The notes below the pieces were generated by a model. The model was not told the DNA's origin. It made no database searches and saw nothing but the letters and a program-made list of their open reading frames with translations. Positions 36,637 through 53,694 of a stretch of 64,000 nucleotides of DNA are shown here, piece after piece. Numbering within the stretch: the first letter of the stretch is position 1; each line of letters starts with the position of its first letter. The translations under genes were made by a program, and so were the position numbers. The stretch comes from Candidatus Bathyarchaeia archaeon. GTDB taxonomy: Archaea > Thermoproteota > Bathyarchaeia > Bathyarchaeales > DTEX01. The stretch spans positions 13,862-77,861 of the forward strand of contig JAWAZE010000002.1 of NCBI GenBank assembly GCA_038817885.1. The letters are read 5' to 3'.

Positions 36637-37041
36637 ATGAGTGTTGTACGTTTTAGTGTTTCGCTCCCTCCATCTGTCGTTAAAGAGTTTGATAACGTTT
36701 GGAGAAGTATGGGTTATGAGAGCCGTTCTAAGGCCATTCATGACGCTATCCGAACTTTTATAAGTGAGTTTAAGTGGACATCTGCGGAGAGTGAGCATGT
36801 AGCCGGGGCCATCCTCGTCCTATATTATTTAGACAAACCAGACCTCCTAGAGAAGGTTATGAACATACAACATAAGTTTAGGGATATTATATCCTCGACA
36901 ACACATATACATTTGGAGGAAGATAAATGCCTAGAAATAATCGCTGTTAATGGGAAAGTCGACGAAATAAGAAGGCTGGCGGAAGAGCTAACCGCTAAAA
37001 AGGGAGTTAAGCAGGTTAAAGTTGCTGTGGTAGCGCCCTAG
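36637..37041 (+). CDS. nikR: NikR-type nickel-responsive transcriptional regulator
   Basis: 134 aa. N-terminal ribbon-helix-helix (VRFSVSLPPSVVKEFD...GYESRSKAIHDAIR) and a C-terminal ACT-like domain with HVAGAILVLY and THIHLEEDKCLEI metal-site residues. Confidence 0.85.
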   Translation: MSVVRFSVSLPPSVVKEFDNVWRSMGYESRSKAIHDAIRTFISEFKWTSAESEHVAGAILVLYYLDKPDLLEKVMNIQHKFRDIISSTTHIHLEEDKCLEIIAVNGKVDEIRRLAEELTAKKGVKQVKVAVVAP

Positions 37042-38103: not shown

Positions 38104-40044
38104 ATGAGAAAAGTGATTAGAATCGCGTTAGCGGGAAACGCGAATGTTGGAAAATCTGTAATATTTAATCAGTTAACTGGGCTTCATCAGCACGTTGGCA
38201 ACTGGCCTGGAAAAACTGTTGAAAGAGCTGATGGAACCCTCCATTTTAAGGGTTATACGATCGATATAATTGATTTACCAGGCATATATTCACTGTCAAC
38301 TTTCTCACTTGAAGAGCTGATCTCTAGAGAATATATAGTTGATGAGAAGCCGGATGTTGTGATAAATGTTGTTGATGCATCTATTCTGGAGAGAAACCTT
38401 TTCTTCACGCTCCAGCTAATGGAGCTTGAGACACCATTAATTATAGCCCTCAACCAAATAGATGTCGCTGAGAGGAAGGGGATAAAGATAGACTATAAGA
38501 GACTTGAGGAGATGCTGGGGGTACCAGTCGTTCCAATGGTTGCCATTAGAGGCAAAGGTATACATGAACTGCTATGTAGTATAATCGAGGGCTTCGAAGG
38601 GAGCTTTAGGAAACCATCTCCCATAAGATATGGTAGCGAGATTGAAGCAAGAATACAAAAGTTAGAGGAGATTTTAAGGAGCGCCGGCTTAAAGTATCCG
38701 CTCAGATGGACTGCCATAAAGCTTCTTGAAGGCGATGAAGAGGTTATAAAAGAGGTTAGGGCGGTAAGACCCGAGGCTCTAACGCTATCTGAGAAATTGG
38801 CTAGGGAAATAGAGGAGATACATGGTCACCCCTGCCCGACAGTTATTGCATCAGAGCGATATGAGGCTGCTGGCAAAATTGCTAGAGAAGTTCAACGGAT
38901 TCTTCCAACAATAAGGATCCCATTAAGTGACAGAATAGACCACTTAACAACACACAAAGTTTATGGTTATATTATAATGGTTGGGGCGCTCTTAGTGATT
39001 TTCTACACGATTTTCAACCTCGGCAGCCTCCTCTCAGAATACCTTACTAACATGTTTTATGGTTATAAGATGCTCCTCGAAACGATTTTTGGGTCGGGAT
39101 TATTAAAGGATCTGGCTTGGGGCGGACTTTTGGAGGGGATTATAGCAACGATAACCATAGCATTACCATACATAATCCCATTCTACATAATACTCTACAC
39201 CCTAGAGGACTCCGGTTATCTTACCAGAATAGCCTTTTTAATGGACATATTCATGCATAAAATTGGATTGCATGGCAAAACCTTTATCCCCCTGATGCTC
39301 AGCTACGGATGCAATGTTCCGGCATGCTTGGGCTGCAGAATAATGGAGACTGAGAGGGAGAGGCTTATAGCGGGCTTCGTGGTTACACTGATTCCGTGCG
39401 CAGCCCGCACTGTCGTAATACTCGGGCTTGTTGGAAGATACCTTGGGATAAGTTGGGCTCTATCTCTATATGTGATAGATTTAGCCGTAGTATTCCTCCT
39501 AGGCAGGGTGGCTTTTAAGGTTCTCCCAGGGGAAGCGATGGCGCTTATAATGGAGATGCCGGAGTATAGAGTGCCGCATTTAAAAACGATTGTTAAACAG
39601 ACGTGGTTTAGGCTCAAAGAGTTCTTAGAGATAGCCTTGCCTGTGATAATTGTCAGCAACCTAATAATTAAGGTGATAGAGTCTTTAGGCGCATTATCCA
39701 TCCTCTCAAGGACGATGAGTCCAATAACTGTAATTTGGCTTGGATTGCCTGAGATAACCGGCGTACTGCTGATATTTGGCGTCTTGAGAAAGGAGCTTAC
39801 CTTAGTACTACTCGCGGCTCTGCTCGGCACAGAAAAAATTCACGAATATTTTACACCGCTCCAAATGTTTACATTCTCGCTGGTAATGATGCTTTATGTG
39901 CCTTGCGTCGCAACAATAGCTGCATGTATCAAAGAGTTCGGTTGGAAGAAGGCGATAATAATAGCGGTTGTTGAGATCCTCTTCGCAATCCTTGTAGGAG
40001 GTTTAGTCTCTAGGATACTTGCGGCACTAAATATACTCAAATGA
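38104..40044 (+). CDS. feoB: FeoB ferrous iron transporter (G-domain plus polytopic membrane domain)
   Basis: 646 aa. G1 GNANVGKS, G3 DLPG, NQID (G4), then about 8-10 TM helices containing gate-motif cysteines. Confidence 0.9.
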
Positions 40045-40248: not shown

Positions 40249-41346
40249 CTAGATTATCTTAGGTACTGTTTTCCGCGCGGTTAGCGCCCATATTCTACAT
40301 GTTCCCTCTATGCCAACCATGCATGATCCAACAGGCTTTTGCGGCGTGCAAGCCTTCATGAATAGTGGGCACTCTGTGGGCACAATCTTTCCTATTATAA
40401 CTAGGTGGCATTGGCATCCCGGCGGAATATCCCTTCCCCCCTTGACTCTAATATCATATTTCTCGTGAGCATCATACTCCATGTATTCTTCATTAAGAGC
40501 TAACGCTGAGTTCGGTATTCTTCCAAGACCCCGCCAGTTCCCGCTAACAACTTTAAAGACCTTTCTCATCAATTCTTTGGCTTTAACATTGCCTTCCCAC
40601 CTTACAGCTCGACTATACTCGTTCTCTAGGACAGCTATTCGGTTTCTGATCTGTTTTAAAGCCATATATATTGCGAGTAGAACATCTATTGGTTCAAAAC
40701 CAGCAATGATCGTTGGCATTCGATAAACTTTTGGAAATATTTCATAAGGTTCTAAGCCTATGATCGTACTGACATGTCCTGGGGCTATGAAGGCATCTAT
40801 ATATAGATCACCTATGCCCAACATAAGCTCCATAGCTGGCGGGATAAGCCTATGAGATATCAAGAAACTGAGATTTCTCGGCGGCCTCCTGAGTATCTCG
40901 GAGGCGGTTGATGGCGCGGTCGTCTCAAAGCCTATTGCGAAGAAAACAAAGTCTTTTTTATGTTCCTTTTCAGCCATTTTCACTGCATCCATGGCGCTAT
41001 AGACTATTCGGACATCCGCCCCACTAGCCTTAGCATCTATGGGGGACATGCTGGTTCCCGGAACTCGGACAGCATCCCCAAAGCATATGAGCGTAACTCC
41101 TTTTAACGCTATTTCTATTGCCTCATCAACCTCAGAGGCCGGCACAATACATACTGGGCAGCCTGGACCGGCTATAACGTTAACATTTTCCGGCAGTAGG
41201 CTTCTTATACCATAATGTGATATAGTCCACTCGTGCGTCCCACATACATGACAGATTTTTATAGAATCCCTCTTAGGCGCTATCTCATGTATTTTTTCAA
41301 CTATTCTCCTCGCGAGTTTCGGATCCCTAAAATCTTCTAGGAGCAT
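40249..41346 (-). CDS. hypD: HypD [NiFe] hydrogenase maturation protein
   Basis: Start placed at ATG 41346 (MLLEDFRDPKLARRIVEKI), which shares 1 nt with the hypC stop (TAATG). Motifs CHVCGTHE, GPGCPVCI, FETT, and the C-terminal Cys cluster CxxH...PGCQC. Confidence 0.9.
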   Translation of the reverse strand: MLLEDFRDPKLARRIVEKIHEIAPKRDSIKICHVCGTHEWTISHYGIRSLLPENVNVIAGPGCPVCIVPASEVDEAIEIALKGVTLICFGDAVRVPGTSMSPIDAKASGADVRIVYSAMDAVKMAEKEHKKDFVFFAIGFETTAPSTASEILRRPPRNLSFLISHRLIPPAMELMLGIGDLYIDAFIAPGHVSTIIGLEPYEIFPKVYRMPTIIAGFEPIDVLLAIYMALKQIRNRIAVLENEYSRAVRWEGNVKAKELMRKVFKVVSGNWRGLGRIPNSALALNEEYMEYDAHEKYDIRVKGGRDIPPGCQCHLVIIGKIVPTECPLFMKACTPQKPVGSCMVGIEGTCRIWALTARKTVPKII

Positions 41347-41576
41347 TATTCTCTCGACCTTTCCATCCCCAGAATCTCCTTCCATAACATTAGAGTTTCC
41401 TCAGCCTCCTCCTTATCTAAAACCTGTATTGCGTACCCCGCATGAACGAGAACGTAATCGCCAACTTTGGTATCCACAAGCGATATGTTTGCCTCCCTAA
41501 TCACCCCGCCGCCAAAATCAACTTTAGCCAACTCGCCGTTTATCTCAATAACCCTTGCGGGAACGGCTAAGCACAT
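41346..41576 (-). CDS. hypC: HypC/HupF hydrogenase assembly chaperone
   Basis: 76 aa. The invariant MCLAVPARV N-terminus. Confidence 0.9.
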   Translation of the reverse strand: MCLAVPARVIEINGELAKVDFGGGVIREANISLVDTKVGDYVLVHAGYAIQVLDKEEAEETLMLWKEILGMERSRE

Positions 41577-41750: not shown

Positions 41751-42692
41751 TTGAGATATAAGGTTAAGTTGATTTCTATCAAAGAAAAGGATAGGTTAAT
41801 GGAAAAGTATGGCGATCGTTTCCTCTATGAAGTTAAGGCTGACATTTATGGTTGCTGCATTAAGCTCCTCACCGATATAAGGTATGTTAAGGAGCGGTGG
41901 GAAGAGAGTTTTTATCCAATGTCAGCGAATATCCGCTCCCATGGAAGATTAGTGGTTACAAATGAAGCAGACAGGGAAATGCATGTACTCTACGACCCAC
42001 TATCAAAAACATCCTTCTTAATAAATGTAGATTATTATGGCTGGATTAAATCAATAGCCTTAAGCGTGGCTGGTGACATCCTAGAGGACGAGCATGGCAT
42101 AAACTCCGTTCATGGCGCGTGCGTTGATGTAGGGGGACAGGGAATTTGCCTAATAGCTCCACCAGGCACAGGAAAAACAACACATACATATGGACTTTTA
42201 AGATTTAAGGGAATACGCGTCGTTTCAGACGACTGGTTTTTTGTGCGTTTAATGGGCGACGAAGCCCTCGCATTTGCCTCAGAAAAGAACTTTTACATTC
42301 AGGCGGATATAGCTGATATTTGGGGTGAGTATAAAAGCCTGGTTGATAAGGCTGAGTTTGACCCGATGGGCAGAGCCGTGGTGAATGTCAGGTGGATCGT
42401 TGGAAAGGGGAAGATTCTTCCAATGACAACCCTGAAAAAAGCTATAATTTTAAAGCGGGATCAAGGGGACAAGACGGTCTTCGGCAAAATCTCATCAAGT
42501 GAGGCTATGGCTTGCGTAGAGCCCTTTAACTTCTGTAACCCCCATCTATTGGTGAAGGATGAGCGGAAAACAAATTTAAGGAGAAGGTTCTTCGAAAAAC
42601 TCTTCAGTCTCTTAGACACCTATATTGTGAACACTGCTGCACCAATATCGGAGACTCATAGGGCGATTAGAGAGGAGATTTTAGGCTTATAG
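41751..42692 (+). CDS. Hypothetical P-loop protein with HPr-kinase/PEP-carboxykinase-like nucleotide-binding motif
   Basis: 313 aa. HGACVDVGGQGICLIAPPGTGKTTHTYGLL...VSDDWFFV resembles the HprK C-domain/PEPCK P-loop followed by Asp-Asp. Otherwise unrecognised. Confidence 0.45.
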   Translation: MRYKVKLISIKEKDRLMEKYGDRFLYEVKADIYGCCIKLLTDIRYVKERWEESFYPMSANIRSHGRLVVTNEADREMHVLYDPLSKTSFLINVDYYGWIKSIALSVAGDILEDEHGINSVHGACVDVGGQGICLIAPPGTGKTTHTYGLLRFKGIRVVSDDWFFVRLMGDEALAFASEKNFYIQADIADIWGEYKSLVDKAEFDPMGRAVVNVRWIVGKGKILPMTTLKKAIILKRDQGDKTVFGKISSSEAMACVEPFNFCNPHLLVKDERKTNLRRRFFEKLFSLLDTYIVNTAAPISETHRAIREEILGL

Positions 42693-42711: not shown

Positions 42712-44988
42712 TTAAGAGAACGATGCCACAACAGCTTGGCCGAAGGATAACCCTCCATCTCCGGGCGGCAGGATCTCATGGACGAAAAAGTTTAATCCAT
42801 TCATCTCAACCAATCTATGTATCTCTTCGGCGATTATCTGGTTGCATGCAACCCCCCCAGTGAAACCAACATCTTTCACACCATATTCTGCGGCCAGATG
42901 AACTGCTAGCTGAGCTAAACCCCTAGCCAAGTAACAGTGAAGAGAGTAGGCTAAATCCCTTCTAGAATAATTATTTCTCTCCTCAAATAGTGAGACTATT
43001 ATGTCCGTCGTCTTCAGTTTAGTGCCGCCAATTTGCGGTTTAATATTAATAACATTTCTTCCATGAATTGCCGCCGACTCAAGCCTCATTGCCGGTTCAC
43101 CCTCATACGTTCTTTCATAACATATGCCTAAGATTGCTGAGGCAGCGTCTAAAACTCTGCCGCAACTGGTAGTCTTAATCTTAATTTCCCCCTTCTTGAG
43201 CTGCGAGAGTATTAACTGGGCTTCCCTGACACCATAGGGTAAATTAATGCTGTTCTCCATAAGCCAATCCTCTATATTCACATGTTTATAAAGTATGCCG
43301 GCCGCAATTCTAAGCGGATACTTTGTAGCCAAATCTCCTCCAAGGAGCGGCTGCTCCTCTAAATGGCCAAGGCGCTTAAACTCTAGCGGGCTAATCGAGC
43401 CAAATATTATCTCTCCGCCCCACGCACCACCGTCTTGGCCGTAACCATAACCATCACAGCATATGGCTATGATCTCGGTTAGGCCATGTTCAGCCATTAA
43501 AGCCGCCGCATGAGCATAGTGATGCTGGGCTTGAAGCATTTGCCAACCATGTTCTTCAGAGAGTCTTTTAGCAAGCATAGTTGTAGCGAACTTTGGGTGT
43601 AGATCACATGCGACCACCTCAACATTGCTGTTAGTTAAACGTATTAGCCTCTTAGACGCGTGCTCAAGGAACTCTAAGGTTTCGAGGTTCTCAACATCAC
43701 CTATGTGCTGTGAAAGGAAAGCCTTATCGCCCGCTACTAAACATGCAGTATTATTCTTTTCACCCCCCAGACCCAGCGCACAGCGTCTAGCTTTAAACTT
43801 TAATCTAATCGGCTCAGGCGCATATCCCCTCGACCGCCTTATGAAGACAGTTTTATTTCCATGTAAGCGTAGGACAGAGTCGTCGCATCTATGAGCTATC
43901 CGCCTATTATGCAGTAAAAAGTAGTCTGCTAGACCGCGTAATTTCTTAAATGCTTCCTCATCGTCCTTAATTATCGGCTGGTTCGGCGGGTTGGCGCTAG
44001 TCATAACGAAGGCTGGGTCAGAAACCCAGTCAAAGAGCATATAGTGCAGTCCAGTATATGGGAGCATGACACCAATATTATGTAAGCCAGGTGAAACCAT
44101 GCCGGAAAGATAATAATCCTCACTCTTCTCCAATAGAACTATTGGGCGCGTATAGGATGTTAAGACAGCCTCCTCCCACGGGCTGACGTGAGCAAAGGTT
44201 TTAACCGCCTCTAGGCTCCTAGCCATTATCGCAAATGGTTTTTGTCTTCTGTGTTTCGCCATCCTAATCCTTTTAAGCGGATTCTCTAGGAGCGTTGAGG
44301 CAGCAATATGAAAGCCCCCATAACCCTTCACGGCAACAATATATCCTTCTGAAACTAATTTTCCAGATTCTCTGATCGGATCTCCGCACTTAACCCCCTC
44401 GCCATCAGCGCTCACTAAATATGCTTTCGGACCACATCTGGGACACGCAATGGTTTGCGCATGAAACCTCCTATTGGCTGGATCCATATACTCTGATCTG
44501 CAGAAATCGCACATCTGGAAATCGCGCATCGTAGTATTCTCTCTATCATATGGAACATCCTCTATTATTGTATATCTTGGCCCACAGTTCACGCATGTTA
44601 TGAAAAAGTAATCGTATCTCGGGTCCGCCGGGCTGCGCATCTCCATGAGACATTCATCGCACATAGCTATATCTGGCGGTACAACCGAGCCCGATAACTC
44701 GGTCTCCTCAGAACTCCTATATATGCTAAAACCACTATAATCTTCTCCGGACTCTTTAATCGGCGTGATTATAACATCGTGTATTCTGGCCAATGGTGGC
44801 TTCTTATCAATAAGATCCCTTAAAAAATTCTTTATGTTCTGATCTGCACCATCAACAACTATCTCTACACATGAATCTCCCCTATTCCTAACGTAGCCTT
44901 TTAAATGATTTTTAACCGCAATTCTGTATATGAATGGGCGGAAACCAACCCCTTGAACTATGCCTGAAACAATTACTTTTAAACGCAT
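42712..44988 (-). CDS. hypF: HypF carbamoyltransferase for [NiFe] hydrogenase CN ligand synthesis
   Basis: 758 aa. Acylphosphatase-like N-terminus (GIVQGVGFRPFIYR), two zinc-finger pairs (CDECLMEM...CVNCGPRY, CDFCRSEY...CPRCGPK), then YrdC-like and Kae1-like domains. Confidence 0.9.
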   Translation of the reverse strand: MRLKVIVSGIVQGVGFRPFIYRIAVKNHLKGYVRNRGDSCVEIVVDGADQNIKNFLRDLIDKKPPLARIHDVIITPIKESGEDYSGFSIYRSSEETELSGSVVPPDIAMCDECLMEMRSPADPRYDYFFITCVNCGPRYTIIEDVPYDRENTTMRDFQMCDFCRSEYMDPANRRFHAQTIACPRCGPKAYLVSADGEGVKCGDPIRESGKLVSEGYIVAVKGYGGFHIAASTLLENPLKRIRMAKHRRQKPFAIMARSLEAVKTFAHVSPWEEAVLTSYTRPIVLLEKSEDYYLSGMVSPGLHNIGVMLPYTGLHYMLFDWVSDPAFVMTSANPPNQPIIKDDEEAFKKLRGLADYFLLHNRRIAHRCDDSVLRLHGNKTVFIRRSRGYAPEPIRLKFKARRCALGLGGEKNNTACLVAGDKAFLSQHIGDVENLETLEFLEHASKRLIRLTNSNVEVVACDLHPKFATTMLAKRLSEEHGWQMLQAQHHYAHAAALMAEHGLTEIIAICCDGYGYGQDGGAWGGEIIFGSISPLEFKRLGHLEEQPLLGGDLATKYPLRIAAGILYKHVNIEDWLMENSINLPYGVREAQLILSQLKKGEIKIKTTSCGRVLDAASAILGICYERTYEGEPAMRLESAAIHGRNVINIKPQIGGTKLKTTDIIVSLFEERNNYSRRDLAYSLHCYLARGLAQLAVHLAAEYGVKDVGFTGGVACNQIIAEEIHRLVEMNGLNFFVHEILPPGDGGLSFGQAVVASFS

Positions 44989-45048: not shown

Positions 45049-45939
45049 TTATTTGGGTGTTTGAACCTTTTCTAGGACCTTTATGGGTTTCACACGTAAT
45101 TCGTCGAAACCAAGCTCCTCAGGTTGCATGCCCATCGCTAACCCGAGAAGCTGCGTGTAATGTAATACTGGGATACCATACTTCTCACCGAAAATCTTTT
45201 CGACCCGCGTTTGATTAGCATCATACATTATGTGGCAGGCTGGACATACAGTTACTAGTGCATCAGCCTCAGAATCTTTGACGTGAAGGAGCTTCTCTCT
45301 AGCGAGGGACAGTGATATCTTATCGTCTATGGCGGCTATAGTCGAACCGCAGCACTCGGTCTCACCCATATACTCGATAGGCTTTGCCCCGGTCACGCTG
45401 ATGAGCGTTTTCAAGACTTTTGGATCCTCAGGATCCTCAAACTCAATATACTTCTTTGGTCTCGAGAGATGGCACCCGCTATGCCCAGCAACCCTAAGAT
45501 TCTTAAGCGGCCTAGTGACAGCCTTCTTAATTCTGTCTAACCCGATATCCTCAATTAAAGCTTGGGATATATGCTTAACGTTTATGCTTCCCTTAAACTC
45601 TAAGCCGGCTTCCTTCAAATGCTTATTAATTTCCTCTCTAAGCGTCTTATCCCCTTTAAGGATCTTGTTAGTCTTCTTCAATGTACCAGCACAGCCAGGA
45701 CAGAGAGTTAAAATGTTTAAGCCAGTTTGTTCTGCTACAGCGAGGTTTCTCGCAGACAATATAAGCATTAGCTCGTGGCTTAGGGGTTCAAGTGGAAGGC
45801 CGCAACAATTGAATTCTGGCATCTCAGCTAGCTCTACACCTAGTCTACTCAAGACTTTTCTTGCAGAGATCTCGTAGGAAGAGACTCTATATGGGATGGC
45901 GCAGCCTAGATAAAATAAATATTTCTGGCTCATACCCAA
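45049..45939 (-). CDS. HdrB-like protein with two CCG domains (copy 2)
   Basis: 296 aa. Two repeats of the CCG pattern: LGCAIPY...FNCCGLP...LCPGC and SGCHLSR...TECCGST...VCPAC. Start overlaps the hdrC-like stop. Confidence 0.8.
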   Translation of the reverse strand: MGMSQKYLFYLGCAIPYRVSSYEISARKVLSRLGVELAEMPEFNCCGLPLEPLSHELMLILSARNLAVAEQTGLNILTLCPGCAGTLKKTNKILKGDKTLREEINKHLKEAGLEFKGSINVKHISQALIEDIGLDRIKKAVTRPLKNLRVAGHSGCHLSRPKKYIEFEDPEDPKVLKTLISVTGAKPIEYMGETECCGSTIAAIDDKISLSLAREKLLHVKDSEADALVTVCPACHIMYDANQTRVEKIFGEKYGIPVLHYTQLLGLAMGMQPEELGFDELRVKPIKVLEKVQTPK

Positions 45940-46478
45940 ACCTCTCCGCGCTTCTTAGGCTCTCCTCCGAGGAATTTTTCAATACCTATGTTCTGGAGGG
46001 ACTTATTTAGGCTCTCAAGGTTAACTTTTGGTAGCGGCGGGAGGCCAAGAGCTTCGCGCCTCTTAATCCTCGATTCCGGTATCTCATAGATATAACCAGT
46101 TTTAATGAGGGTTCCTAGGAGAGCCTTATATACCTCTGGTATCTGACCCTCCATTACAGCCATATTCTTTAATATTCTTATCACGCTTGCAACCTCAATC
46201 CCTTGCGGGCACCTATCAGTACATGTAAAACACGATGCACAGAGCCATAGGAAGCCACTGCCTAAAACCTTCTCCCGCAGCCCCAGCTGAACCATCCTAA
46301 TAATTTTTCTAGGTCTATACTTATCGCTAAACCTTGCAACCGGGCAGTCGGATGTGCATGTTCCACATTGGAAGCACTGCAGAAGCTTTTCCCCGCCCGG
46401 TATCTTAAGGACTTCATACTTAAACTTTGGATCTATCTTGGAGTATGCTGATACACCTTCTCTACTCGCTTCAGACAA
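45930..46478 (-). CDS. HdrC-like 2x[4Fe-4S] protein
   Basis: 182 aa. CFQCGTCTSDCP and CASCFTCTDRCP cluster motifs at HdrC-type spacing. Confidence 0.8.
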   Translation of the reverse strand: MSEASREGVSAYSKIDPKFKYEVLKIPGGEKLLQCFQCGTCTSDCPVARFSDKYRPRKIIRMVQLGLREKVLGSGFLWLCASCFTCTDRCPQGIEVASVIRILKNMAVMEGQIPEVYKALLGTLIKTGYIYEIPESRIKRREALGLPPLPKVNLESLNKSLQNIGIEKFLGGEPKKRGEVWV

Positions 46479-46553
46479 TTTTAGTCCTCCGGGGATCTTT
46501 GACTTATTTTAATAAAGAAAAAAGGTGGGATAAAAATATGCCTTTTTAGCATG

Positions 46554-47450
46554 CTAAAGTCTTCTAGCCCTTTCTGAGAGACTTGTAAGGAGACTCTTCG
46601 CTCTCTTTATGTTCTCTATTTTTCTCCGGCAGTTTAAGCATATCTTCATCGAATTATAGATGTTGCCGCCGTACTCCTTATACATTGGGACCTTCTCCTC
46701 AACCACGCGCTTTAATGCCCAGTCTATCTGCTTCTGTGGGAAGAACGTTCCGCCACATATAGCGCATTTGAGTAAATCTACCTCATTCTCAACCCTAGCG
46801 GTCTGCGGATCATTTGTCAGCAGGTGGTATGTTCTAGTGAGCCTCAGCGCCTGTGCTGGGCACTCGTCTTGGCAGAAGGCGCAGAAGGTGCAGTGTCCAT
46901 ACTTAATCCTAACAATCCTTTTATCGGGGCCATCAATAATATCTATTGCGTCGCCAGTGCAGATCTGGGAGCAGGCGCCACATCCAATACACTTCTCCTT
47001 ATCAAATTCATGCTTACCCCTGAATCCCTCAGGCGTCTGCCAGAAATCCTCCCTCTCCTCGATCCTCGCACCAAGTATGTCGGCTACAGCCTTAATTATC
47101 GCTTGTGGGCGGGGCGGGCACCCGGGAATATAGTAATTAACTGGTATAAGCTTGTTGGGCGGGCCGACTATTGGATAGCCCTTCTCGAAGATGTTCGACG
47201 TTATCGAGCAGTTCCCGACGGCAATCACTATTTTAGGTGGGTTAATCTTTTTGTACACTTCCAGCAGAGCATCCCTGCCCTTAACAGTCCCGGCGCCAGT
47301 TAAAATTAGAACGTTAGCCTTCTCCGGCTCCTCAACAACCTCAACGCCTAGATCTGCGATCTTATAACGCGGGACAAGGCATTCTAATATCTCCACATCA
47401 CATGCATTACAGCCAGCGGATAGGAAACGATAAACGGAAATCTTACCCAC
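46554..47450 (-). CDS. [NiFe] hydrogenase small subunit (NuoB/EchC type) fused to a 2x[4Fe-4S] NuoI/EchF-like domain and a C-terminal CxxC..CxxC ribbon
   Basis: 298 aa. NuoB-like cysteines GCNACDVE, VGNCS, IPGCPPRP; then CIGCGACSQIC and CTFCAFCQDECP; then CAICGG...CLNCRRK. Confidence 0.8.
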   Translation of the reverse strand: MGKISVYRFLSAGCNACDVEILECLVPRYKIADLGVEVVEEPEKANVLILTGAGTVKGRDALLEVYKKINPPKIVIAVGNCSITSNIFEKGYPIVGPPNKLIPVNYYIPGCPPRPQAIIKAVADILGARIEEREDFWQTPEGFRGKHEFDKEKCIGCGACSQICTGDAIDIIDGPDKRIVRIKYGHCTFCAFCQDECPAQALRLTRTYHLLTNDPQTARVENEVDLLKCAICGGTFFPQKQIDWALKRVVEEKVPMYKEYGGNIYNSMKICLNCRRKIENIKRAKSLLTSLSERARRL

Positions 47451-47464
47451 TCTAACACCCCCAA

Positions 47465-48592
47465 TTACTTTAAGGCCATAATCCTCCTCTTCCCCGTCTT
47501 AACATCGATAACTGCCACGCGGTCTGTGCAGGCGAAGCATGGGTCGATGCTCTCTATCACAGTTCTTGCGTTCTCAAGCTTTTCTCCGCGGAGCATTGCG
47601 AGAATAGCGAAATTATTTGCATATGAGGGCGTCCGAACCTTAACTCTCTCTGGGATATTTGTACCATTAGATCTAACATAGTAGATTAACTCTCCGCGCG
47701 GGGCCTCTACCCTACCGATCTCCTCACCAACCTTAGGCTCACCCGGCTTAACAACAATATCACCCGGCGGGAGGTTGTCGAGAGCCTGCTTAATAATCTT
47801 CATGCTCTCATAGTTCTCTCTCGCCCTGACAAGGGCTTTGGCGCGTACGTCTCCGTCCTTTTCTACTATAACCTCGAAGTCAAGTTTATCGTAGGCGGCG
47901 TACGGATCATCCTTCCTTATATCGCTAGGTACTCCGGAGCCCCTGAGCGTTGGACCGACAGCGCCAACCTCTATGGCTTTATCCCTCGGCAGTACTCCTA
48001 CGCCCCTAGTCTTTTTCGTGAAGATTCCGTTGTCACCTAGGAGCGACATTATATAATCGGATAAGGGAACGAGGGCCTTCAGAACCTTGCGTATCTTCTC
48101 GGCTTTCTCCGGCGTAATATCTCTGCGCACCCCCCCAATGGTGTTTATTGTATAGTTAATTCTGTTTCCAGTCAAGTATTCAAGCAAATCTTGGATTATT
48201 TCTCTCTCGCCCATTATCTTCGCGAAGGCTTCATGCTCATGTAGGCTGTGGGCTAGTATGCCGAACCATAGATAGTGGCTGTGTAGGCGCTCAAGCTCCA
48301 TATATATGGATCTGAGGAACTTAGCCCTCTCAGGAACCTCTATGCCCATCAGCCTCTCAACGGTCTGCACGTAACATAAAGTGTGTATCCCGCTGCATAT
48401 TCCGCATATCCTCTCCGCAAGCGCTATGTTCTGCATATATGTCCTAGTGGCGAATAGCTTCTCTATACCCCTATGCATGTAGCCTAGCTCCATCTTCGCA
48501 TCAATTATTTTATTTCCTTCAACTAAGAGCTCGAAGCGCTCAGGCTCAACGAGCTGCGGGCGGTATGGACCAATATAAATCTTCTCAGGCAT
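47465..48592 (-). CDS. [NiFe] hydrogenase large subunit, complex-I-related (group 4 type)
   Basis: 375 aa. N-terminal Ni-Fe motif RICGICSGIH and C-terminal DPCFACTDR, followed by a 17-aa extension (protease substrate). NuoD/EchE-like length. Confidence 0.85.
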   Translation of the reverse strand: MPEKIYIGPYRPQLVEPERFELLVEGNKIIDAKMELGYMHRGIEKLFATRTYMQNIALAERICGICSGIHTLCYVQTVERLMGIEVPERAKFLRSIYMELERLHSHYLWFGILAHSLHEHEAFAKIMGEREIIQDLLEYLTGNRINYTINTIGGVRRDITPEKAEKIRKVLKALVPLSDYIMSLLGDNGIFTKKTRGVGVLPRDKAIEVGAVGPTLRGSGVPSDIRKDDPYAAYDKLDFEVIVEKDGDVRAKALVRARENYESMKIIKQALDNLPPGDIVVKPGEPKVGEEIGRVEAPRGELIYYVRSNGTNIPERVKVRTPSYANNFAILAMLRGEKLENARTVIESIDPCFACTDRVAVIDVKTGKRRIMALK

Positions 48593-48596
48593 ACAA

Positions 48597-49487
48597 TCAC
48601 ACCCCCAACCTCTTAACTAACTGTGGAACGGGACTCCTATGGAATTCTACTAAGAGCTCCTTTGATGGAACCCCGAATGAGAGGGCTAGTAGCTCCATGA
48701 GGTTTATGCATGGCACATTAAATTGGATGCCGTGTGACCTCAACATAACTTGGCCGAGCTCAAATTGTATCATGCATGCTGGGCAGGCGGTGACCACGGC
48801 GTCCGCTCCGGCACCAGTAATCCTGCTGAGCTTGCGGGCCAGCCTCTCCTTAAGCGAGAACTCTTCATCAGCCTGCATGCTTGGGTATCCGCAGCACATG
48901 CGCTCAAGACCATAGTCTACTACTTGGACACCCGTTTGCTCAGCTAGCTCCTTCATCATATTGGGCTTGCGCATTATATCCGTGCTCTTGTACTCGCGGT
49001 ATAGGTGGCAGCCGTAGTGCAGTGCGACCCGCATATTTAATGGCTTAACCACCAAATCCTTAATCTTCTTTGGACTCACATCCTCATAGAGAACCTCTAT
49101 GACATGCTTTACATCCACTTTACCCTTATATTCCCTACCATACTTCCTTAAGACTCCGTTTACCATGCTCCTCTTCTCGGCGTCATGCTTAAGGATCTCA
49201 TTTGCCTCCGCCAGCGTCTCATAGCAGCCATTGCATAGGGTCATGAGGTCTAAGTCTAGATCCTCAGCTAACGTTAGGTTCCTTGCAGATATCATCAGTG
49301 AGGCCTCCTCATCGACTAGGCGGGAGATGACTGGCTCTGGGCAGCATGAGTAGCCCAGTAAATCAACTGCATCCACACCAAGTCTATCAAAGACTTTTCT
49401 AGTGGCAACCTCAATGTTTGGCAGGCGCATTGGAATCTGGCACCCGAGGAAGAAGGCATATTTCACCATAACCATCACCTCAATCAC
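48597..49487 (-). CDS. HdrB-like protein with two CCG domains (copy 1), inserted between nuoC-like and large-subunit genes
   Basis: 296 aa. LGCQIPM...YSCCPEP...LCNGC and YGCHLY...RMCCGYPS...ACPAC. 4-nt overlap with the upstream nuoC-like gene. Confidence 0.8.
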   Translation of the reverse strand: MIEVMVMVKYAFFLGCQIPMRLPNIEVATRKVFDRLGVDAVDLLGYSCCPEPVISRLVDEEASLMISARNLTLAEDLDLDLMTLCNGCYETLAEANEILKHDAEKRSMVNGVLRKYGREYKGKVDVKHVIEVLYEDVSPKKIKDLVVKPLNMRVALHYGCHLYREYKSTDIMRKPNMMKELAEQTGVQVVDYGLERMCCGYPSMQADEEFSLKERLARKLSRITGAGADAVVTACPACMIQFELGQVMLRSHGIQFNVPCINLMELLALSFGVPSKELLVEFHRSPVPQLVKRLGV

Positions 49488-50167
49488 TTATATCTAAGTT
49501 TTCTCTTATCCCAATCAAATCCAACCCTATCACCCATGCCAGAAGCCTTAATGACCCCATGATATTCGCTTAGAACTTTTTCATCCGTGAAGGGGAATGG
49601 TGCGGTCTTCGGTAGGCCGACCTCCTCACGCTTCTTCTGGACGAAGGCCGATATTGGAGCCACACATCCACTCGCTATTAATGCTTCAGCAACGGGTCTA
49701 GCCTTTGATGGTAGAGCGCCTTCAAGAGGCTTCTTTAATGGCCTCTTATCCTCAGACCAATCCTTAGTTAACACTAGGCCGACTGGATCCGGCTCTGGGT
49801 GATTAATTATCTTGATTCCGAAGAGGTCTGAGATCTCCCTCTCAATAAAGTTTGCCGCTGGGATGAGACTGGCTATAGACTCTAGTGTCGGATCTTCCTT
49901 AGGCTTAACAACTTTAACTGTAACAACTATCCCATCTATGTGAAGGTGGTATAGGTACTCCATGTCTAGACCGTTATCCACGGCGGAGATCGTCATAAAG
50001 CGCATATCCTTATACTTCTTCTTTAGGGCTTCGATGGTTTTCCTAAGGGCTGCTGGCTTAACATTAGCGAGTATCCTTCTCTCCCGCTGCCTATAAGCCT
50101 CCACTAAGTCTGCCCCCAAAGCCTTCTTCAAATAATCCATTACCTCAGACTCAACTGGCAGGGCCAA
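49484..50167 (-). CDS. NuoC/EchD-like hydrogenase subunit with about 70-aa C-terminal extension
   Basis: 227 aa. FMTISAVDNG...YHLH...PAANFIEREISDLFGIKIINHP matches the complex I 30-kDa subunit fold signature. Confidence 0.75.
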   Translation of the reverse strand: MALPVESEVMDYLKKALGADLVEAYRQRERRILANVKPAALRKTIEALKKKYKDMRFMTISAVDNGLDMEYLYHLHIDGIVVTVKVVKPKEDPTLESIASLIPAANFIEREISDLFGIKIINHPEPDPVGLVLTKDWSEDKRPLKKPLEGALPSKARPVAEALIASGCVAPISAFVQKKREEVGLPKTAPFPFTDEKVLSEYHGVIKASGMGDRVGFDWDKRKLRYK

Positions 50168-50170
50168 ACA

Positions 50171-50656
50171 CTACACCCCCAAATAGCGTTTTCTATTAAA
50201 TTCCCAGGCCTCCTTCCTTAATGTAACCCTAATAGCCTGTGGTGAGCAGAACTTAGCGCACTTCGGGTCGCCATCACAGAAGTCGCATTTAAAGGTGATT
50301 CTCCGCTCGGCGTTAAACCAGGGTGCCGATAGCGGGCAGGCGACGGTGCATGTCTTGCAGCCTATACACCTCAGCGGGTTTATCTTAACTAGACCCGTCA
50401 CCTCATCTTTAACGGCAGCCTCATTTGGACAGGATGCGACGCATAGGGGTTCATCACAGTGCTGGCAGTAAATTGCCTCAAACTCCCCAGTCTTCTCGTC
50501 AAATATTATGCGTAGGTTGACCTTCTCTAGGCCGATCTCCTTAAAGTGCTTATATGAGCAGGCTATTTGGCAGAAGAGACAGCCCGTGCACTTCGTGGGG
50601 TCATATAGAAGAACATTCTGCTCAGCAGCATTACCCTTCATAAACTCTTCCCTCAA
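50171..50656 (-). CDS. HycB/DmsB-type ferredoxin with four [4Fe-4S] motifs
   Basis: 161 aa. CTGCLFCQIAC, CQHCDEPLCVASCP, CIGCKTCTVACP, CDFCDGDPKCAKFCSP. Confidence 0.8.
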   Translation of the reverse strand: MREEFMKGNAAEQNVLLYDPTKCTGCLFCQIACSYKHFKEIGLEKVNLRIIFDEKTGEFEAIYCQHCDEPLCVASCPNEAAVKDEVTGLVKINPLRCIGCKTCTVACPLSAPWFNAERRITFKCDFCDGDPKCAKFCSPQAIRVTLRKEAWEFNRKRYLGV

Positions 50657-50743: not shown

Positions 50744-51241
50744 ATGTCCATTAGAAATGAGCTTAAGTCTTGGTTAGGCGGCTGCAGAAGGCTCGTTATA
50801 CTCGGGGTCGGCAACCCCCTCAGGGGGGATGATTCTCTCGGACTGGAGATCCTAGAGAGAATTAGGGGCAGGGTTCCGAGGAACGTTAAGCTAATATATG
50901 GTGGAACAGTTCCGGAGAATTTTATTGGCAAAATGGGGAGGCTTAGGCCATCCCACGTCATCATAATTGATGCGGCTCTCTTCGGCGGCAAGCCCGGCGA
51001 GGCCAGGCTCATACCGCCTGAGCAGATACCTGATACAACCATATCCACACACGCGATCCCGCTAAATCTACTGGCCTCATTGATCCAGAAAAAGACAAAC
51101 GCAAAGGTCATTTTGTTGGGGATAGAGCCGAAGAACTTAGGTCTCGGGGAGAAGATGAGTTGGGAGGTTAGGGAGTCGGTTGAGAGGTGCGCCAGAACAT
51201 TAATAAACGTAACATGGGAGCTAAAACCGTCTGTAATTTAA
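50744..51241 (+). CDS. Hydrogenase maturation endopeptidase (HycI/HyaD family)
   Basis: 165 aa. VILGVGNPLRGDDSLGLEI N-terminal motif and the downstream ISTHAIPL histidine. Confidence 0.85.
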   Translation: MSIRNELKSWLGGCRRLVILGVGNPLRGDDSLGLEILERIRGRVPRNVKLIYGGTVPENFIGKMGRLRPSHVIIIDAALFGGKPGEARLIPPEQIPDTTISTHAIPLNLLASLIQKKTNAKVILLGIEPKNLGLGEKMSWEVRESVERCARTLINVTWELKPSVI

Positions 51242-52029
51242 ACAAGATGCATTAACTCGGTAAGACTTGGTATATAAATGAAAAAGCACACATATAGGGA
51301 GAGAACAAGCATTATAGCCGAGATTGAAATGAAAAGATAATCTTTCATGCTCATCTTAAGTGAGTATAAATTTGTGCGCTTTTTTGATGCGCCCCAAGCC
51401 CTAGACTCCATAGCCTCAGCGAGCTCCATACTCCTCCTTATGGCACTGACTATAAGTGGTATCAGAATTGGTATATAATTCCTTATTCTTTTTATGAAGT
51501 TTCCCCGCTCAAGCTCTAATCCTCGCGTCCTCTGCGCATCTATTATTGTCTGCGCCTCTTCAGCTAAGACTGGAACGAACCTTATCGCCGTTATAAATGC
51601 GAAGCAGAATTCGTAGGGGATACCTACTTGCTCAAGAGATAAGCTAAGCATATCCGGTGATGTTGTCGCAAAGAATATTGAGAATGATTCGACAAGAATA
51701 ATGAATCTGGCTGTCATGGCTAGAGAACGCTCTATAATTGCTGGTATAGATGGGTAGCCGCCATAAAAGTAGAGTGAGACCGCATTTGTGATGAAGATTA
51801 ACGCTGCGAAAAATGCCGCCCCCCTCATTAGGCGCAGCCATTCCCTCTTAATTTTAGCCACCATAACCAACGGGGTCTGGGAAAAGAATAATATTAAAAG
51901 TGGTATTAGCTGGCTGAACATTATTGCCGCAGCAAATAAAACGCATACATAGATAAATTTAGCTCTGGGGTCAATCCTATGTAAAGGCGACGAAATACTC
52001 CTAAACCTTAAGCCTTCAAACATGCTCAT
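51238..52029 (-). CDS. ecfT: ECF transporter transmembrane (T) component, CbiQ/EcfT family
   Basis: 263 aa, polytopic. SPLHRIDPRAKFIYV N-terminus and the ARxxR-type coupling helices (IDAQRTRG..., AIRRSMELAEAMESR). Confidence 0.8.
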   Translation of the reverse strand: MSMFEGLRFRSISSPLHRIDPRAKFIYVCVLFAAAIMFSQLIPLLILFFSQTPLVMVAKIKREWLRLMRGAAFFAALIFITNAVSLYFYGGYPSIPAIIERSLAMTARFIILVESFSIFFATTSPDMLSLSLEQVGIPYEFCFAFITAIRFVPVLAEEAQTIIDAQRTRGLELERGNFIKRIRNYIPILIPLIVSAIRRSMELAEAMESRAWGASKKRTNLYSLKMSMKDYLFISISAIMLVLSLYVCFFIYIPSLTELMHLV

Positions 52030-52853
52030 TTACTAACCCTACTTTGAAGTCTCTCGAGAATTAAGCGCTTAGCCTCATAAACACCTAAAACTTTTCTTGG
52101 GAAACCAAAATCATTAAGTCTCATAAATACTTGAGTCATCTCCGGCAGCACTAGAGACGCCTCTTTTATCAAGATTGGATCCGTGAGCACCTCCCTAGTC
52201 TCTCCATCAGCAATTATCTTGCCGTTAGCCATCAAGATAACCCTTGGCTCACACTCAGCAGCAAACTCTACATCATGCGTCACTATTATCACAGTTTTAC
52301 CCTGATGGTTCAGCTGAATTATAAAGTGCCGGAGCTTCTCCTTCTGATACGCATCCTGCCCTATCGTCGGCTCATCAAGTATCAGTACTTTTGGATCCCA
52401 CGCTAAAACTGACGCCAAGGCAACCCTCTTTCTCTCCCCACCACTAAGCATAAAAGGCGAGGTTCTACGGTACTGGGTTAAATCTAGGAGGTTAAGCGCC
52501 CAGTCAACCCTCTCTTTAATAGTCTTCTCATCAAACCCAAAATTTTTGAGGGCGAAGGCGATTTCCTCCTCAACTGTTTCGCTGAAGAGCTGGTGATCTG
52601 GATTTTGGAACACGAAACCCACTTTCCTGGCTAGCTCGGCGACGCTAACGCTTCTCGTATCAACCCCATCTATTAAAACCCTTCCTTTAGCCGGCTTTAA
52701 TAGACCAATAAAGTGCTTAACCAGCGTAGTTTTGCCGGCTCCATTCTGCCCCATTATTGCAACAAACTCTCCATCCAAGATTCTCACGGATACTCCCCTA
52801 AGAGCCTCAACGTTATTGGGGTATGTGAAGTAAACGTTCTCAGCCTCTATCAG
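52026..52853 (-). CDS. ecfA: ECF transporter ATPase (A' component); N-terminus extends beyond the first canonical start codon
   Basis: Walker A GQNGAGKTT, signature LSGGERKRV, Walker B LILDEPT. The ORF-track start (GTG 52787) removes conserved N-terminal strands. In-frame LIEAENVYFTYPNNVEALRGVSV continues up to 52853. See findings. Confidence 0.75.
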   Translation of the reverse strand: MIEAENVYFTYPNNVEALRGVSVRILDGEFVAIMGQNGAGKTTLVKHFIGLLKPAKGRVLIDGVDTRSVSVAELARKVGFVFQNPDHQLFSETVEEEIAFALKNFGFDEKTIKERVDWALNLLDLTQYRRTSPFMLSGGERKRVALASVLAWDPKVLILDEPTIGQDAYQKEKLRHFIIQLNHQGKTVIIVTHDVEFAAECEPRVILMANGKIIADGETREVLTDPILIKEASLVLPEMTQVFMRLNDFGFPRKVLGVYEAKRLILERLQSRVSK

Positions 52854-53694
52854 ACCTGAGCACCTCCATGATCAGCTCAGATGCTTCTTCCGGGCTTAAT
52901 GGGACCTTGCCAAGGTCAACATTACTCTCCCTTAATGCGAGGTAAAGCCTAATGACCTTCGGTAGCCCGACACCAACTAACCTGACTTTATCATCCAGAA
53001 AGATTTTTCTAGGCTCCCCATCCAAGATTATGTGGCCGCGGTTCATGATGATGACACGGCTAGCATATCTAACGGCTAAATCCAATCTATGCTCGACAAG
53101 TATGACCGTTATCCTCAGATTCTTATTCAGCTGATAAATTGTCTCTAAAATGCTCCTAGCGCTTAATGGGTCAAGGAACGATGTGGGTTCGTCTAAGACA
53201 ATTACCTCGGGTTGCATCGCGAGGACGGAGGCGATCGCAACACGCTGTTGTTGCCCGCCGGAGAGCTCAAATGGAGCCCTATCCTTTAGATCATATATTC
53301 CAGTGACCTTTAACGCCCAATCAACTCTTCTGCGAATCTCATCTCTAAGGAGACCGAGGTTCTCTAGTCCGAAGGCTACGTCCTTCTCAACGGTGAGAGC
53401 GAATAGCTGATTTTCCGGGTTCTGGAAGACCAGACCAACGTGCTTTGCTAATTTATAAATGGGGTTATCTTTCGTATTTAATCCGGCGACCACGACATCG
53501 CCCTTAAGATCCCCACCATAAAAGTGCGGTATAAGCCCATTAAAGCACCTACAAAGCGTGGTCTTCCCACACCCACTCGGACCAGTTAAAATGACAAAAT
53601 CTCCTTTCTCGATTGTTAAATTTATATCCTTAATGGCGGGCTTCTCGGCGAGGGGATACGTATATGTTAAATCTCTTACCTCAATTATCGCCAA
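52840..53694 (-). CDS. ecfA: ECF transporter ATPase (A component)
   Basis: 284 aa. Walker A GPSGCGKTT, signature LSGGQQQRV, Walker B IVLDEPTS. First gene of the A-A'-T module. Confidence 0.85.
   Translation of the reverse strand: MAIIEVRDLTYTYPLAEKPAIKDINLTIEKGDFVILTGPSGCGKTTLCRCFNGLIPHFYGGDLKGDVVVAGLNTKDNPIYKLAKHVGLVFQNPENQLFALTVEKDVAFGLENLGLLRDEIRRRVDWALKVTGIYDLKDRAPFELSGGQQQRVAIASVLAMQPEVIVLDEPTSFLDPLSARSILETIYQLNKNLRITVILVEHRLDLAVRYASRVIIMNRGHIILDGEPRKIFLDDKVRLVGVGLPKVIRLYLALRESNVDLGKVPLSPEEASELIMEVLRSDRG

Follow-up and report, generated by a model that had tools for sequence, protein, structure and literature searches.

The 64-kb stretch of DNA analysed here (the window) originates from a hot-spring Bathyarchaeia genome and carries seven co-directional genes in which the subunits of a group 4 [NiFe] hydrogenase are interleaved with homologs of the heterodisulfide reductase subunits HdrB and HdrC. 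Comparison with related loci and with solved structures makes it moderately probable that the functional unit is a five-subunit, cytoplasmic and non-pumping group 4 [NiFe] hydrogenase that has lost its membrane arm, with one of the two HdrB homologs (HdrB1) as its terminal reductase. Group 4 hydrogenases are textbook relatives of complex I that are regarded as obligately membrane-bound ion pumps.

More tentatively, and as a possibility rather than an expectation, the window enzyme may represent the first fully cytoplasmic group 4 lineage, i.e., a stand-alone homolog of the Q-module that ends in an arm-held HdrB and through which H2 would directly reduce a non-methanogenic disulfide (or a persulfide or polysulfide); because the core often adjoins HdrABC/Mvh genes, it might provide one half of an H2-driven thiol/disulfide cycle. 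A conserved lineage without a membrane arm would be an exception to the group 4 rule and a natural experiment on the peripheral arm alone, and a module with a fused NuoB-NuoI subunit and an HdrB head should be tractable for structural work. Moreover, Bathyarchaeia rank among the most abundant archaea of sediments and hot springs, and the presence of the enzyme in many of them bears on their hydrogen and thiol metabolism and on the identity of their heterodisulfide.

All seven open reading frames (ORFs) are present on the minus strand, and their products were assigned with Pfam and NCBIfam. In order of transcription, the features are:

50171..50656, minus strand: HycB/DmsB-type ferredoxin ('Fd4x'), 161 amino acids (aa), first gene of the five-gene core; Pfam Fer4_11
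49718..50167, minus strand: NuoC (30 kDa) domain, residues ~1-150 of the NuoC-like subunit; Pfam Complex1_30kDa (E 8e-21, residues 35-147), matches PDB Nqo5
49487..49702, minus strand: C-terminal extension of the NuoC-like subunit, residues ~156-227; homologous to the HdrC C-terminal arm
48597..49487, minus strand: HdrB1, 296 aa; Pfam CCG twice, PDB HdrB 8rvu_b (E 8e-75)
47465..48592, minus strand: [NiFe] large subunit, 375 aa, classified by homology as group 4/NuoD type; Pfam Complex1_49kDa, with NiFeSe_Hases at the N-terminus
47067..47450, minus strand: NuoB-type small-subunit domain, residues 1-128 of the fusion; Oxidored_q6, 4 Cys for one proximal [4Fe-4S]
46557..47048, minus strand: NuoI/HycF-type domain, residues 135-298 of the fusion; NCBIfam HycF-type PRK12387 (E 2e-27), PDB HycF 7z0s_F
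46479..46553, minus strand: 75-nt spacer between the core and hdrC, read by eye
45930..46478, minus strand: HdrC, 182 aa, 2x[4Fe-4S]; PDB HdrC 8rvu_c (E 2.5e-32)
45049..45939, minus strand: HdrB2, 296 aa, two complete CCG motifs; Pfam CCG

The consecutive gaps measure 3, -4, 4, 14, 75, and -10 nt, followed by 60 nt to hypF; the start of HdrB1 overlaps the stop of the nuoC-like gene by 4 nt. The original prediction, which was made from the sequence of the window, had described seven tightly spaced or overlapping minus-strand genes encoding a HycB-type ferredoxin, a NuoC-like protein, two HdrB-like proteins, a large subunit, a NuoB-NuoI fusion and an HdrC-like protein, and the ORF positions, the gap lengths and the domain assignments all agree with that description.

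The five-gene core and the absence of a membrane arm

A scan of species-representative genomes yielded 79 loci, to which look-ups of single homologs added more, and approximately 43 to 46 usable loci of the Bathyarchaeia family to which the window belongs (the window family) were inspected together with 10 kb on each side; individual loci are referred to by number (L001, etc.). The core, consisting of Fd4x, the NuoC-like subunit, HdrB1, the large subunit, and the NuoB-NuoI fusion, in that order, was colinear and complete in 39 of the 39 loci whose contig reaches that far, with gaps at contig ends only, and the five-gene arrangement is therefore far beyond chance. Counted per gene, Fd4x was found in 39 family loci, HdrB1 in 45, and a HycI-type protease gene beside the core in 18. 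HdrB1, which had been noted in the window as inserted between the nuoC-like gene and the gene for the large subunit, takes that same place in the 45 loci and is an integral, conserved subunit of the core.

The large subunit contains the L1 motif RICGICSGIH (residues 61-70, nt 48383-48412) and the L2 motif DPCFACTDR (residues 350-358, nt 47519-47545); the group 4 motifs are defined as C[GS][ILV]C[AGNS]xxH for L1 and [DE][PL]Cx[AGST]Cx[DE][RL] for L2, with four Cys ligands (PMC7886697). Pfam Complex1_49kDa matched with E 3e-68, and the best solved relatives in the PDB were MbhL (E 4e-76) and HycE (E 4e-70), followed by NuoD, while hydrogenases of groups 1-3 matched at the N-terminus only. On the basis of these alignments the large subunit is classified as group 4 type and not 3c, in accordance with the type originally proposed for the catalytic pair. 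The DPCFACTDR motif had likewise been recognised correctly, but the protein does not end at its Arg as had been stated: 17 residues (VAVIDVKTGKRRIMALK, nt 47468-47518) continue beyond it and align with the C-terminal extension of HycE. This extension is presumably cleaved by HycI, and the adjacent HycI-type protease gene agrees with its presence.

A Bathyarchaeia metagenome-assembled genome encodes a protein with 100% identity to the large subunit, and the homologs of this subunit, all 374-375 aa in length and nearly all from Bathyarchaeia, comprise more than 120 clusters at 72-95% identity. When the sequence library was clustered at 50% identity the family formed a cluster of its own, the nearest other representatives being 45-55% identical. 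A rough neighbour-joining tree and a profile search placed Ech-type (group 4e) and unnamed archaeal sequences nearest, and a profile built from the nearest sister representatives retrieved mostly bacterial Ech large subunits, which makes the Ech type the nearest named relative. In the tree the window large subunit groups with those of L006, L043, L044, and L007, and not with those of L072 or L049. The NuoB-NuoI fusion (298 aa) combines an Oxidored_q6 domain with a HycF/NuoI dicluster domain containing 8 Cys; 16 cluster-ligand Cys and four further Cys (C229, C232, C271, C274) are invariant in 46 homologs. Fd4x has 16 Cys in four [4Fe-4S] motifs, and its PDB matches include HycB (7z0s_B, E 3.5e-17).

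A 19-residue hydropathy scan detected no transmembrane (TM)-grade segment in any of the seven products, with EcfT (4 segments) and FeoB (8 segments) as controls. Homologs of NuoH, NuoL, or Mrp, searched for with queries from distant relatives, were found neither among all ORFs of the window nor within 10 kb on either side of the core in approximately 46 family loci. The earlier statement that no membrane protein occurs among the products or nearby was thereby borne out by hydropathy scan and homolog search, for the window and approximately 45 related genomes. Between the large-subunit and NuoI genes, where NuoH is encoded in membrane-bound relatives, the window has no NuoH gene, and NuoB is fused to NuoI instead. 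In addition, the NuoB domain lacks the N-terminal 21-38 residues of membrane-bound homologs, its alignment opening at query residue 5-6, which corresponds to residue 27 of MbhJ, 39 of HycG, and 42 of Nqo6; NuoB of the NuoH-containing cluster L049 retains approximately 41 N-terminal residues. The missing NuoB segment, the NuoB-NuoI fusion, and the lack of an intervening NuoH gene are signs that the NuoH interface was lost. The nearest outgroup, L007, whose large subunit is 49% identical, has the same NuoB-NuoI fusion followed by small MbhD/NuoJ-like membrane genes, which suggests, as far as a rough tree can indicate, a stepwise and secondary loss of the membrane arm.

The membrane genes directly behind the fusion in L007, the occurrence of small downstream membrane proteins in a few family loci (163 aa with 5 TM in L004; DUF2061 in 5 loci), and the range of the inspection, which covered the window and, at the related loci, flanks of 10 kb, would also be compatible with a conventional energy-converting hydrogenase bound to the membrane by NuoH and NuoL/Mrp-type subunits whose genes lie in another part of the genome. 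We regard this as highly improbable: no such homolog was encountered in some 46 loci from different species, every membrane-bound relative has the NuoH/NuoL/Mrp genes inside the operon, the N-terminal segment of NuoB is deleted, and the small membrane genes downstream show no family-wide conservation. The 163-aa protein, with five predicted TM segments and no Pfam match, is encoded just downstream of NuoB-NuoI in L004 (12203-12694, plus strand) and L005, with a homolog elsewhere in L009, and the DUF2061 protein (74 aa) takes a similar position in its five loci (e.g., L001:12239-12463, plus strand); neither gene is present in the window.

HdrB1, the HdrC-type arm, and the proposed reaction

The NuoC-like protein of the window is 227 aa long, and its C-terminal ~75 residues share homology with the C-terminal HdrC arm. 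NuoC-like proteins whose genes adjoin HdrB measure 218-258 aa, compared with approximately 150 aa otherwise, and the extension is highly conserved in the window family and in L006, L007, L043, L044, and L049, and is not present in NuoC of clusters without HdrB. The full-length protein matched HdrC (5odc_C) with E 6.4e-5, aligning residues 159-225 of the query to 117-183 of 184, and when the extension alone was searched against the PDB the only significant matches were four HdrC sequences (best E 9.6e-6), colinear to the extreme C-terminus and including the GFDW(E/D)K motif; an hhalign comparison of the extension with the family HdrC profile gave P 9e-6. A hydropathy of 1.63 is borderline for a membrane helix, but the stretch concerned aligns with a segment of HdrC, and a helix of this kind was rejected.

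A hidden Markov model (HMM) of the extension also matched small unannotated ORFs beside HdrB in the genomically described hydrogenase clusters Ehe (E 1.5e-22), Drh (1.9e-12), Ehd (1.1e-10), and 'Ehd-like' (1.8e-6). Judged by this homology, Drh, Ehd, Ehe, and Ehd-like clusters encode the HdrC arm as a small protein of its own, and the window family has it fused to NuoC. Since the arm HMM and Fd4x both found counterparts in Ehe, Drh, Ehd, and Ehd-like, the HdrB-linked group 4 hydrogenases all have the same output trio, made up of a HycB-like ferredoxin, the HdrC arm, and HdrB, a feature that was recognised in the present analysis and not in the literature. In the 2017 Hdr structure the C-terminal segment of HdrC reportedly contacts HdrB. 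By analogy, the arm on NuoC probably clamps HdrB1, a docking rule that would hold for every group 4 enzyme linked to HdrB (Drh, Ehd, Ehe, Ehg). In solved Hdr structures, moreover, the heterodisulfide pocket is formed by HdrB and HdrC jointly (PMC13261682). The suggestion that HdrB docks at the site of NuoH was contradicted by the co-occurrence of both proteins in five related systems, i.e., Drh (L087), Ehd (L088), Ehd-like (L089), Ehe (L072), and a Nezhaarchaeales cluster (L049), in each of which NuoH was detected as PF00146; it was not detected in the window family, and the HdrC arm on NuoC offers another docking element.

HdrB1 and HdrB2 are 39% identical (BLASTP) and each contain two complete CCG motifs (CX31-39CCX35-36CXXC, the motif that binds a noncubane [4Fe-4S] cluster), at residues 16-88 and 160-238 in HdrB1 and 13-83 and 156-235 in HdrB2. 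Their scores against the NCBIfam HdrB model (TIGR03288), 284.4 and 288.1 bits, respectively, fall under the equivalog cutoff of 345.15; by sequence both are HdrB homologs, and the score does not imply specificity for CoM-S-S-CoB, the heterodisulfide of coenzyme M and coenzyme B. HdrB1 is approximately 41% identical to methanogen HdrB. In a neighbour-joining tree HdrB1 joined the hydrogenase-embedded HdrBs in a clade apart from HdrB2, which grouped with methanogen HdrB and with HdrA/Mvh-linked copies; HdrB2 shares 63% identity with the HdrB encoded in the L036 cluster MvhD-HdrC-HdrB-MvhG-MvhA.

HdrC, accompanied by HdrB2, was found near the core in 13 of 43 family loci. Besides its position inside the L036 cluster, the HdrC-HdrB pair was found downstream of an HdrA-MvhD fusion and upstream of the core in L028, and in L006 the core is directly followed by HdrC-HdrB2-HdrA-MvhD. 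Because of this limited occurrence, the HdrA/MvhD/Mvh context elsewhere, and the position of HdrB2 in the tree, HdrC-HdrB2 is regarded as an accessory pair that belongs, as its BC part, to a canonical Hdr unit often but not always found beside the core, and the seven genes do not constitute the single unit that had been proposed. The spacer before hdrC contains, as weak signals read by eye, a T6 run, a TATA-like box (TTTATTAAAATA), and a GGAGG of its own, and may hold an internal terminator or promoter.

A single complex of all seven products, with HdrC-HdrB2 docked on the ferredoxin chain as a second disulfide-reducing head, would fit the co-directional and tight spacing in the window, the recurrence of the same order up to hypF in seven close hot-spring relatives (L008, L010, L011, L012, L040, L045, L047), and the varied arrangements in which the pair lies beside the core in the 13 loci. 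We nevertheless consider it unlikely, as 30 of the 43 loci have no HdrC-HdrB2 near the core, in L006, L028, and L036 the partners of the pair are HdrA-MvhD, or MvhD together with a group 3 hydrogenase, HdrB2 groups with canonical HdrBs rather than with HdrB1, and the spacer carries the T-run, TATA-like box, and GGAGG.

HdrA and MvhD, reported earlier as absent from the window, were not retrieved there by tblastn with HdrA and FlpD (MvhD) queries from relatives, yet they are frequent neighbours in related genomes: HdrA and/or MvhD were encountered within 10 kb of the core in approximately 11 of 43 loci, and some Hdr or Mvh component in approximately 20 of 43. Together with the gene order of L006, and with a HycB-like ferredoxin that could hand electrons to MvhD or HdrA, these frequencies might point to an alternative H2-oxidising module for the bifurcating HdrABC-MvhD complex, which would replace or supplement MvhAG and allow H2 to drive reduction of both disulfide and ferredoxin. 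Such a role appears rather improbable, in view of the lack of HdrA/MvhD genes near the core in the window and its closest relatives, the presence in the core of HdrB1, which would be superfluous in a module that only donates electrons, and the presence of a normal group 3 Mvh-type hydrogenase beside the Hdr genes in several genomes (L006, L036). The Hdr/Mvh components near about 20 of the 43 cores rather suggest a shared thiol/disulfide pool, physical coupling to HdrABC-MvhD being less likely.

For the five-subunit enzyme, the order of the clusters, the docking of HdrB1, the direction of the reaction, and the substrate would be as follows, the cluster order being inferred from the architectures of Mbh, formate hydrogenlyase (FHL), and Hdr/HdrABC. 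The NiFe site in the large subunit (375 aa) would split H2, and electrons would pass to the proximal [4Fe-4S] cluster of the NuoB domain, on through the two clusters of the fused NuoI/HycF domain, across the four clusters of the HycB-like ferredoxin, and finally to the two noncubane clusters of HdrB1, where a disulfide would be reduced, with HdrB1 probably being held by the HdrC-derived arm on the C-terminus of the NuoC-like subunit. The net reaction would be H2 + R-S-S-R' -> R-SH + R'-SH, without ion pumping or flavin-based bifurcation, and HdrC-HdrB2 would probably be a separate module acting on the same thiol/disulfide pool. CoM-S-S-CoB is an improbable candidate for the disulfide, since most Bathyarchaeia do not make methane.

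HdrB1 could also serve another function than disulfide reduction, as in SdhE/TfrB, GlpC, GlcF, or LutA, and act on a quinone-like carrier, fumarate/succinate, or a 2-hydroxy acid, or as a relay. The CCG family is functionally diverse, NCBIfam also reported matches to SdhE (129-158 bits), LdhH, TfrB, GlpC, and GlcF, the HdrB equivalog cutoff was not reached, and the Ehd-like cluster L089 has GlcD-like and GlcF/HdrD-like genes beside HdrB. This is nevertheless very unlikely, since HdrB1 is far closer to true HdrB (284 bits, PDB E 8e-75, ~41% identity) than to other CCG families, is accompanied by an HdrC-type arm, HdrC being a protein that helps to form the heterodisulfide pocket in Hdr, and has no conserved flavoprotein or dehydrogenase partner beside the core.

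On sequence comparison, a soluble wiring from H2 to disulfide, as originally proposed, remains the best reading, with a group 4-type, membrane-free enzyme in which HdrB1 is integral. The thiol/disulfide theme recurs in the Nezhaarchaeales operon of L049, which is headed by a pyridine-nucleotide-disulfide oxidoreductase. Several points weigh against this reading. Its main weakness is physiological: with textbook potentials of -414 mV and about -140 mV, a direct H2:disulfide reaction would dissipate approximately 50 kJ/mol, and where a bifurcating Mvh-Hdr system is present in the same cell the reaction would short-circuit it, so that the benefit to the organism is hard to see. Furthermore, CCG-domain proteins also act on non-disulfide substrates, HdrB1 scores under the TIGR03288 cutoff, the search for membrane partners spans the window and the 10-kb flanks of the loci, both the large-subunit and HdrB trees are neighbour-joining only with unreliable deep nodes, and the window family, Drh, Ehd, and Ehe are enzymes predicted from genomes.

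Genes surrounding the core

A maturation set (hypC, hypD, hypF, HycI-type protease) and nikR had been noted within 10 kb, and Pfam confirmed all of them:

50744..51241, plus strand: HycI-type C-terminal maturation protease, divergent; Pfam HycI (E 5.5e-21)
42712..44988, minus strand: HypF maturation protein; Pfam
41346-41576, minus strand: hypC; Pfam HupF_HypC (E 3e-28)
40249-41385, minus strand: hypD; Pfam HypD (E 2e-137)
36637..37041, plus strand: NikR nickel-responsive regulator; Pfam NikR_C (E 7e-26)

A 313-aa protein encoded between hypC and hypF on the opposite strand (41751-42692, plus strand) weakly resembles the C-terminal (P-loop) domain of HPr kinase, with an E of 1e-5 that does not reach the Pfam cutoff. 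Metal-supply genes lie on both sides of the hydrogenase and hyp genes (36637-40044 and 51238-53694), with NikR, FeoB, and a DtxR-type repressor that carries a fused FeoA on one flank, and a CbiQ/EcfT component with two ABC ATPases, without an obvious substrate-capture (S) subunit nearby, on the other; the latter may constitute a Ni/Co importer of the energy-coupling factor (ECF) type. Approximately 14 kb from the cluster (29315-31495, plus strand) lies the gene for a 726-aa molybdopterin oxidoreductase catalytic subunit (Fe4S4, Molybdopterin, Molydop_binding), flanked by two SMC/Rad50-like ATPase genes; molybdopterin oxidoreductases are often partnered by HycB-type ferredoxins, and no synteny evidence ties this one to the hydrogenase.

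Two neighbours encountered in related loci were considered as clues to the substrate and rejected. A sulfur relay was suggested by TusA, YeeE, and DsrEFH beside the core in L001, but these genes occur in few loci only and not in the window. A lipoyl-protein substrate, prompted by a GcvH-like gene near the core in 12 of approximately 46 family loci, was discarded since the protein (197-201 aa; e.g., L001:14337-14942 and L004:18848-19441, both plus strand) carries an N-terminal ribbon-helix-helix domain and apparently a Met at the lipoyl-Lys site, and is not encoded in the window. The Met seems to replace the lipoyl-lysine when ETWMFMFDLYAP is compared by eye with what we take to be the canonical motif. 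The gene is usually paired with an AbrB/MazE-PhoU-like gene near the core, and the fusion looks, from its domains, like a regulator built on a GcvH scaffold.

Some loci carry unexpected taxon labels. L032 (DATKLC010000041.1), labelled Krumholzibacteriaceae bacterium, contains a Bathyarchaeia-type core with a large subunit 73% identical to that of the window, and L048, L051, L052, and L055, labelled Nanohalarchaeota, contain Mbh-like clusters nearly identical to that of the Methanosarcinales-labelled L057. These labels are likely binning errors, or else reflect lateral transfer.

Comparison with known HdrB-linked and other hydrogenases

HdrB-interacting group 4 hydrogenases have been inferred from genomes before, i.e., Drh in Methanocellales, Ehd in Methanomethylicia, Ehe in Culexarchaeia, Ehg in Nezhaarchaeia, and 'Ehd-like' clusters that include Bathyarchaeia (PMC9723716, PMC6046458, PMC12700198), the Ehd, Ehe, Ehg, and Ehd-like clusters being from Kohtz et al. 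2022 (PMC9723716). The proposal of Drh ('disulfide-reducing hydrogenase') is credited to Lyu & Lu 2015 by PMC6046458 and PMC9723716. The enzyme lacks an antiporter subunit, a direct and non-pumping reduction of CoM-S-S-CoB with H2 was proposed for it, and it is upregulated in syntrophic co-culture (PMC9723716, PMC6046458). Moreover, hdrB has been reported inside an 'fpo-like' operon of hot-spring Bathyarchaeia (PMC8407382), and the Hdr substrate, or heterodisulfide, of non-methanogenic Bathyarchaeia is an open question (PMC7886697, PMC9723716). The view that the window encodes an undescribed enzyme class was therefore overstated. No paper on a fully membrane-free form with fused subunits was found in the open-access literature, and it is this form that appears to be undescribed, the HdrB-linked, membrane-anchored kind having been predicted before. 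The gene contents compared are:

Drh, M. arvoryzae, L087: ferredoxin, 90-aa ORF, HdrB, 2-TM protein, NuoCD large subunit (518 aa), NuoH, NuoI, NuoB
Ehd, Methanosuratincola, L088: NuoL, ferredoxin, 117-aa ORF, HdrB, NuoCD large subunit, NuoH, NuoI, NuoB
Bathyarchaeia Ehd-like, L089: NuoL, NuoCD large subunit, NuoH, NuoI, NuoB, ferredoxin, 95-aa ORF, HdrB, GlcD-like, GlcF/HdrD-like
Nezhaarchaeales, L049: disulfide oxidoreductase, ferredoxin, NuoL, NuoC, HdrB, large subunit, NuoH, NuoI, NuoB, HycI
Ehe, Culexmicrobium, L072: NuoH also present

Drh resembles the window in being a group 4 cluster with a HycB-like four-cluster ferredoxin, an HdrC-arm module, and HdrB, and in having no NuoL/Mrp subunit. 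It differs in that it is membrane-anchored by NuoH (313 aa, PF00146) and a small 2-TM protein, in that NuoC and NuoD are fused (518 aa) while NuoB and NuoI are separate, and in that the arm is a separate 90-aa ORF; its HdrB sits in another cluster of the HdrB tree than HdrB1. The window, in turn, lacks NuoH and has the NuoB-NuoI fusion, the arm on NuoC, and a C-terminal extension of the large subunit with HycI nearby. For the Drh locus (Methanocella arvoryzae, AM114193.2), the gene call at L087:6595-7739 is a single 375-aa CCG protein over 1145 nt, which is not a multiple of three; the sequence contains two ORFs with a 4-nt overlap, the 90-aa HdrC-arm ORF ending in RYK* and HdrB starting at 6864, and the record seems to have merged the two products. 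Small hydrophobic proteins of 90-101 aa are encoded near the large-subunit gene of Drh, Ehe, and Ehd-like (L087:7736-8008, L072:9210-9497, L089:6246-6551); they have two TM segments where scored, look alike by eye, have no Pfam match in L072, and may be an unnamed membrane subunit of these complexes.

Ehd, Ehe, Ehg, and Ehd-like share with the window the trio of Fd4x, HdrC arm, and HdrB, as well as the catalytic module of NuoB, NuoC, NuoD, and NuoI, and the Nezhaarchaeales cluster L049 also shares the gene order NuoC(+arm)-HdrB-large subunit. In contrast to the window they contain NuoH and a NuoL-type antiporter subunit and have been proposed to pump ions, and Ehd, Ehe, and Ehd-like have a NuoCD-fused large subunit of 545-570 aa, whereas that of the window is unfused and 375 aa long. 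The window family forms a membrane-free cluster of its own, 45-50% identical to any of these enzymes, and, the deep nodes of the tree being unreliable, its HdrB association may share a common origin with those of Ehd, Ehe, and Drh. Directly upstream of the Nezhaarchaeales operon, L049:2893-4275 (plus strand) encodes a class I pyridine-nucleotide-disulfide oxidoreductase (Pyr_redox_2 and dimerisation domain, 460 aa), which hints at a low-molecular-weight disulfide as a shared substrate.

FHL-1 of E. coli (group 4a, PDB 7Z0S) shares with the window a HycE-like site with a C-terminal extension and HycI protease, and an electron wire of HycG (NuoB), HycF (NuoI), and HycB to a peripheral catalytic partner. 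This partner is FdhF and not HdrB1, however, and FHL-1 has the membrane subunits HycC and HycD, NuoC fused to the large subunit, and unfused NuoB and NuoI. MvhADG-HdrABC (group 3c; PDB 5ODC, 8RVU) likewise connects HdrB-type noncubane clusters with a [NiFe] hydrogenase; the window HdrC-HdrB2 are closely homologous to its C and B subunits, and the NuoC arm is homologous to the C-terminus of its HdrC. By contrast, the hydrogenase of the window belongs to group 4, HdrA and MvhD are absent from the window, which therefore has no bifurcation site, and HdrB1 is without a full HdrC. What distinguishes the window family is thus that NuoH and NuoL have been lost completely, that NuoB is fused to NuoI, and that NuoC carries the HdrC arm as a fusion.

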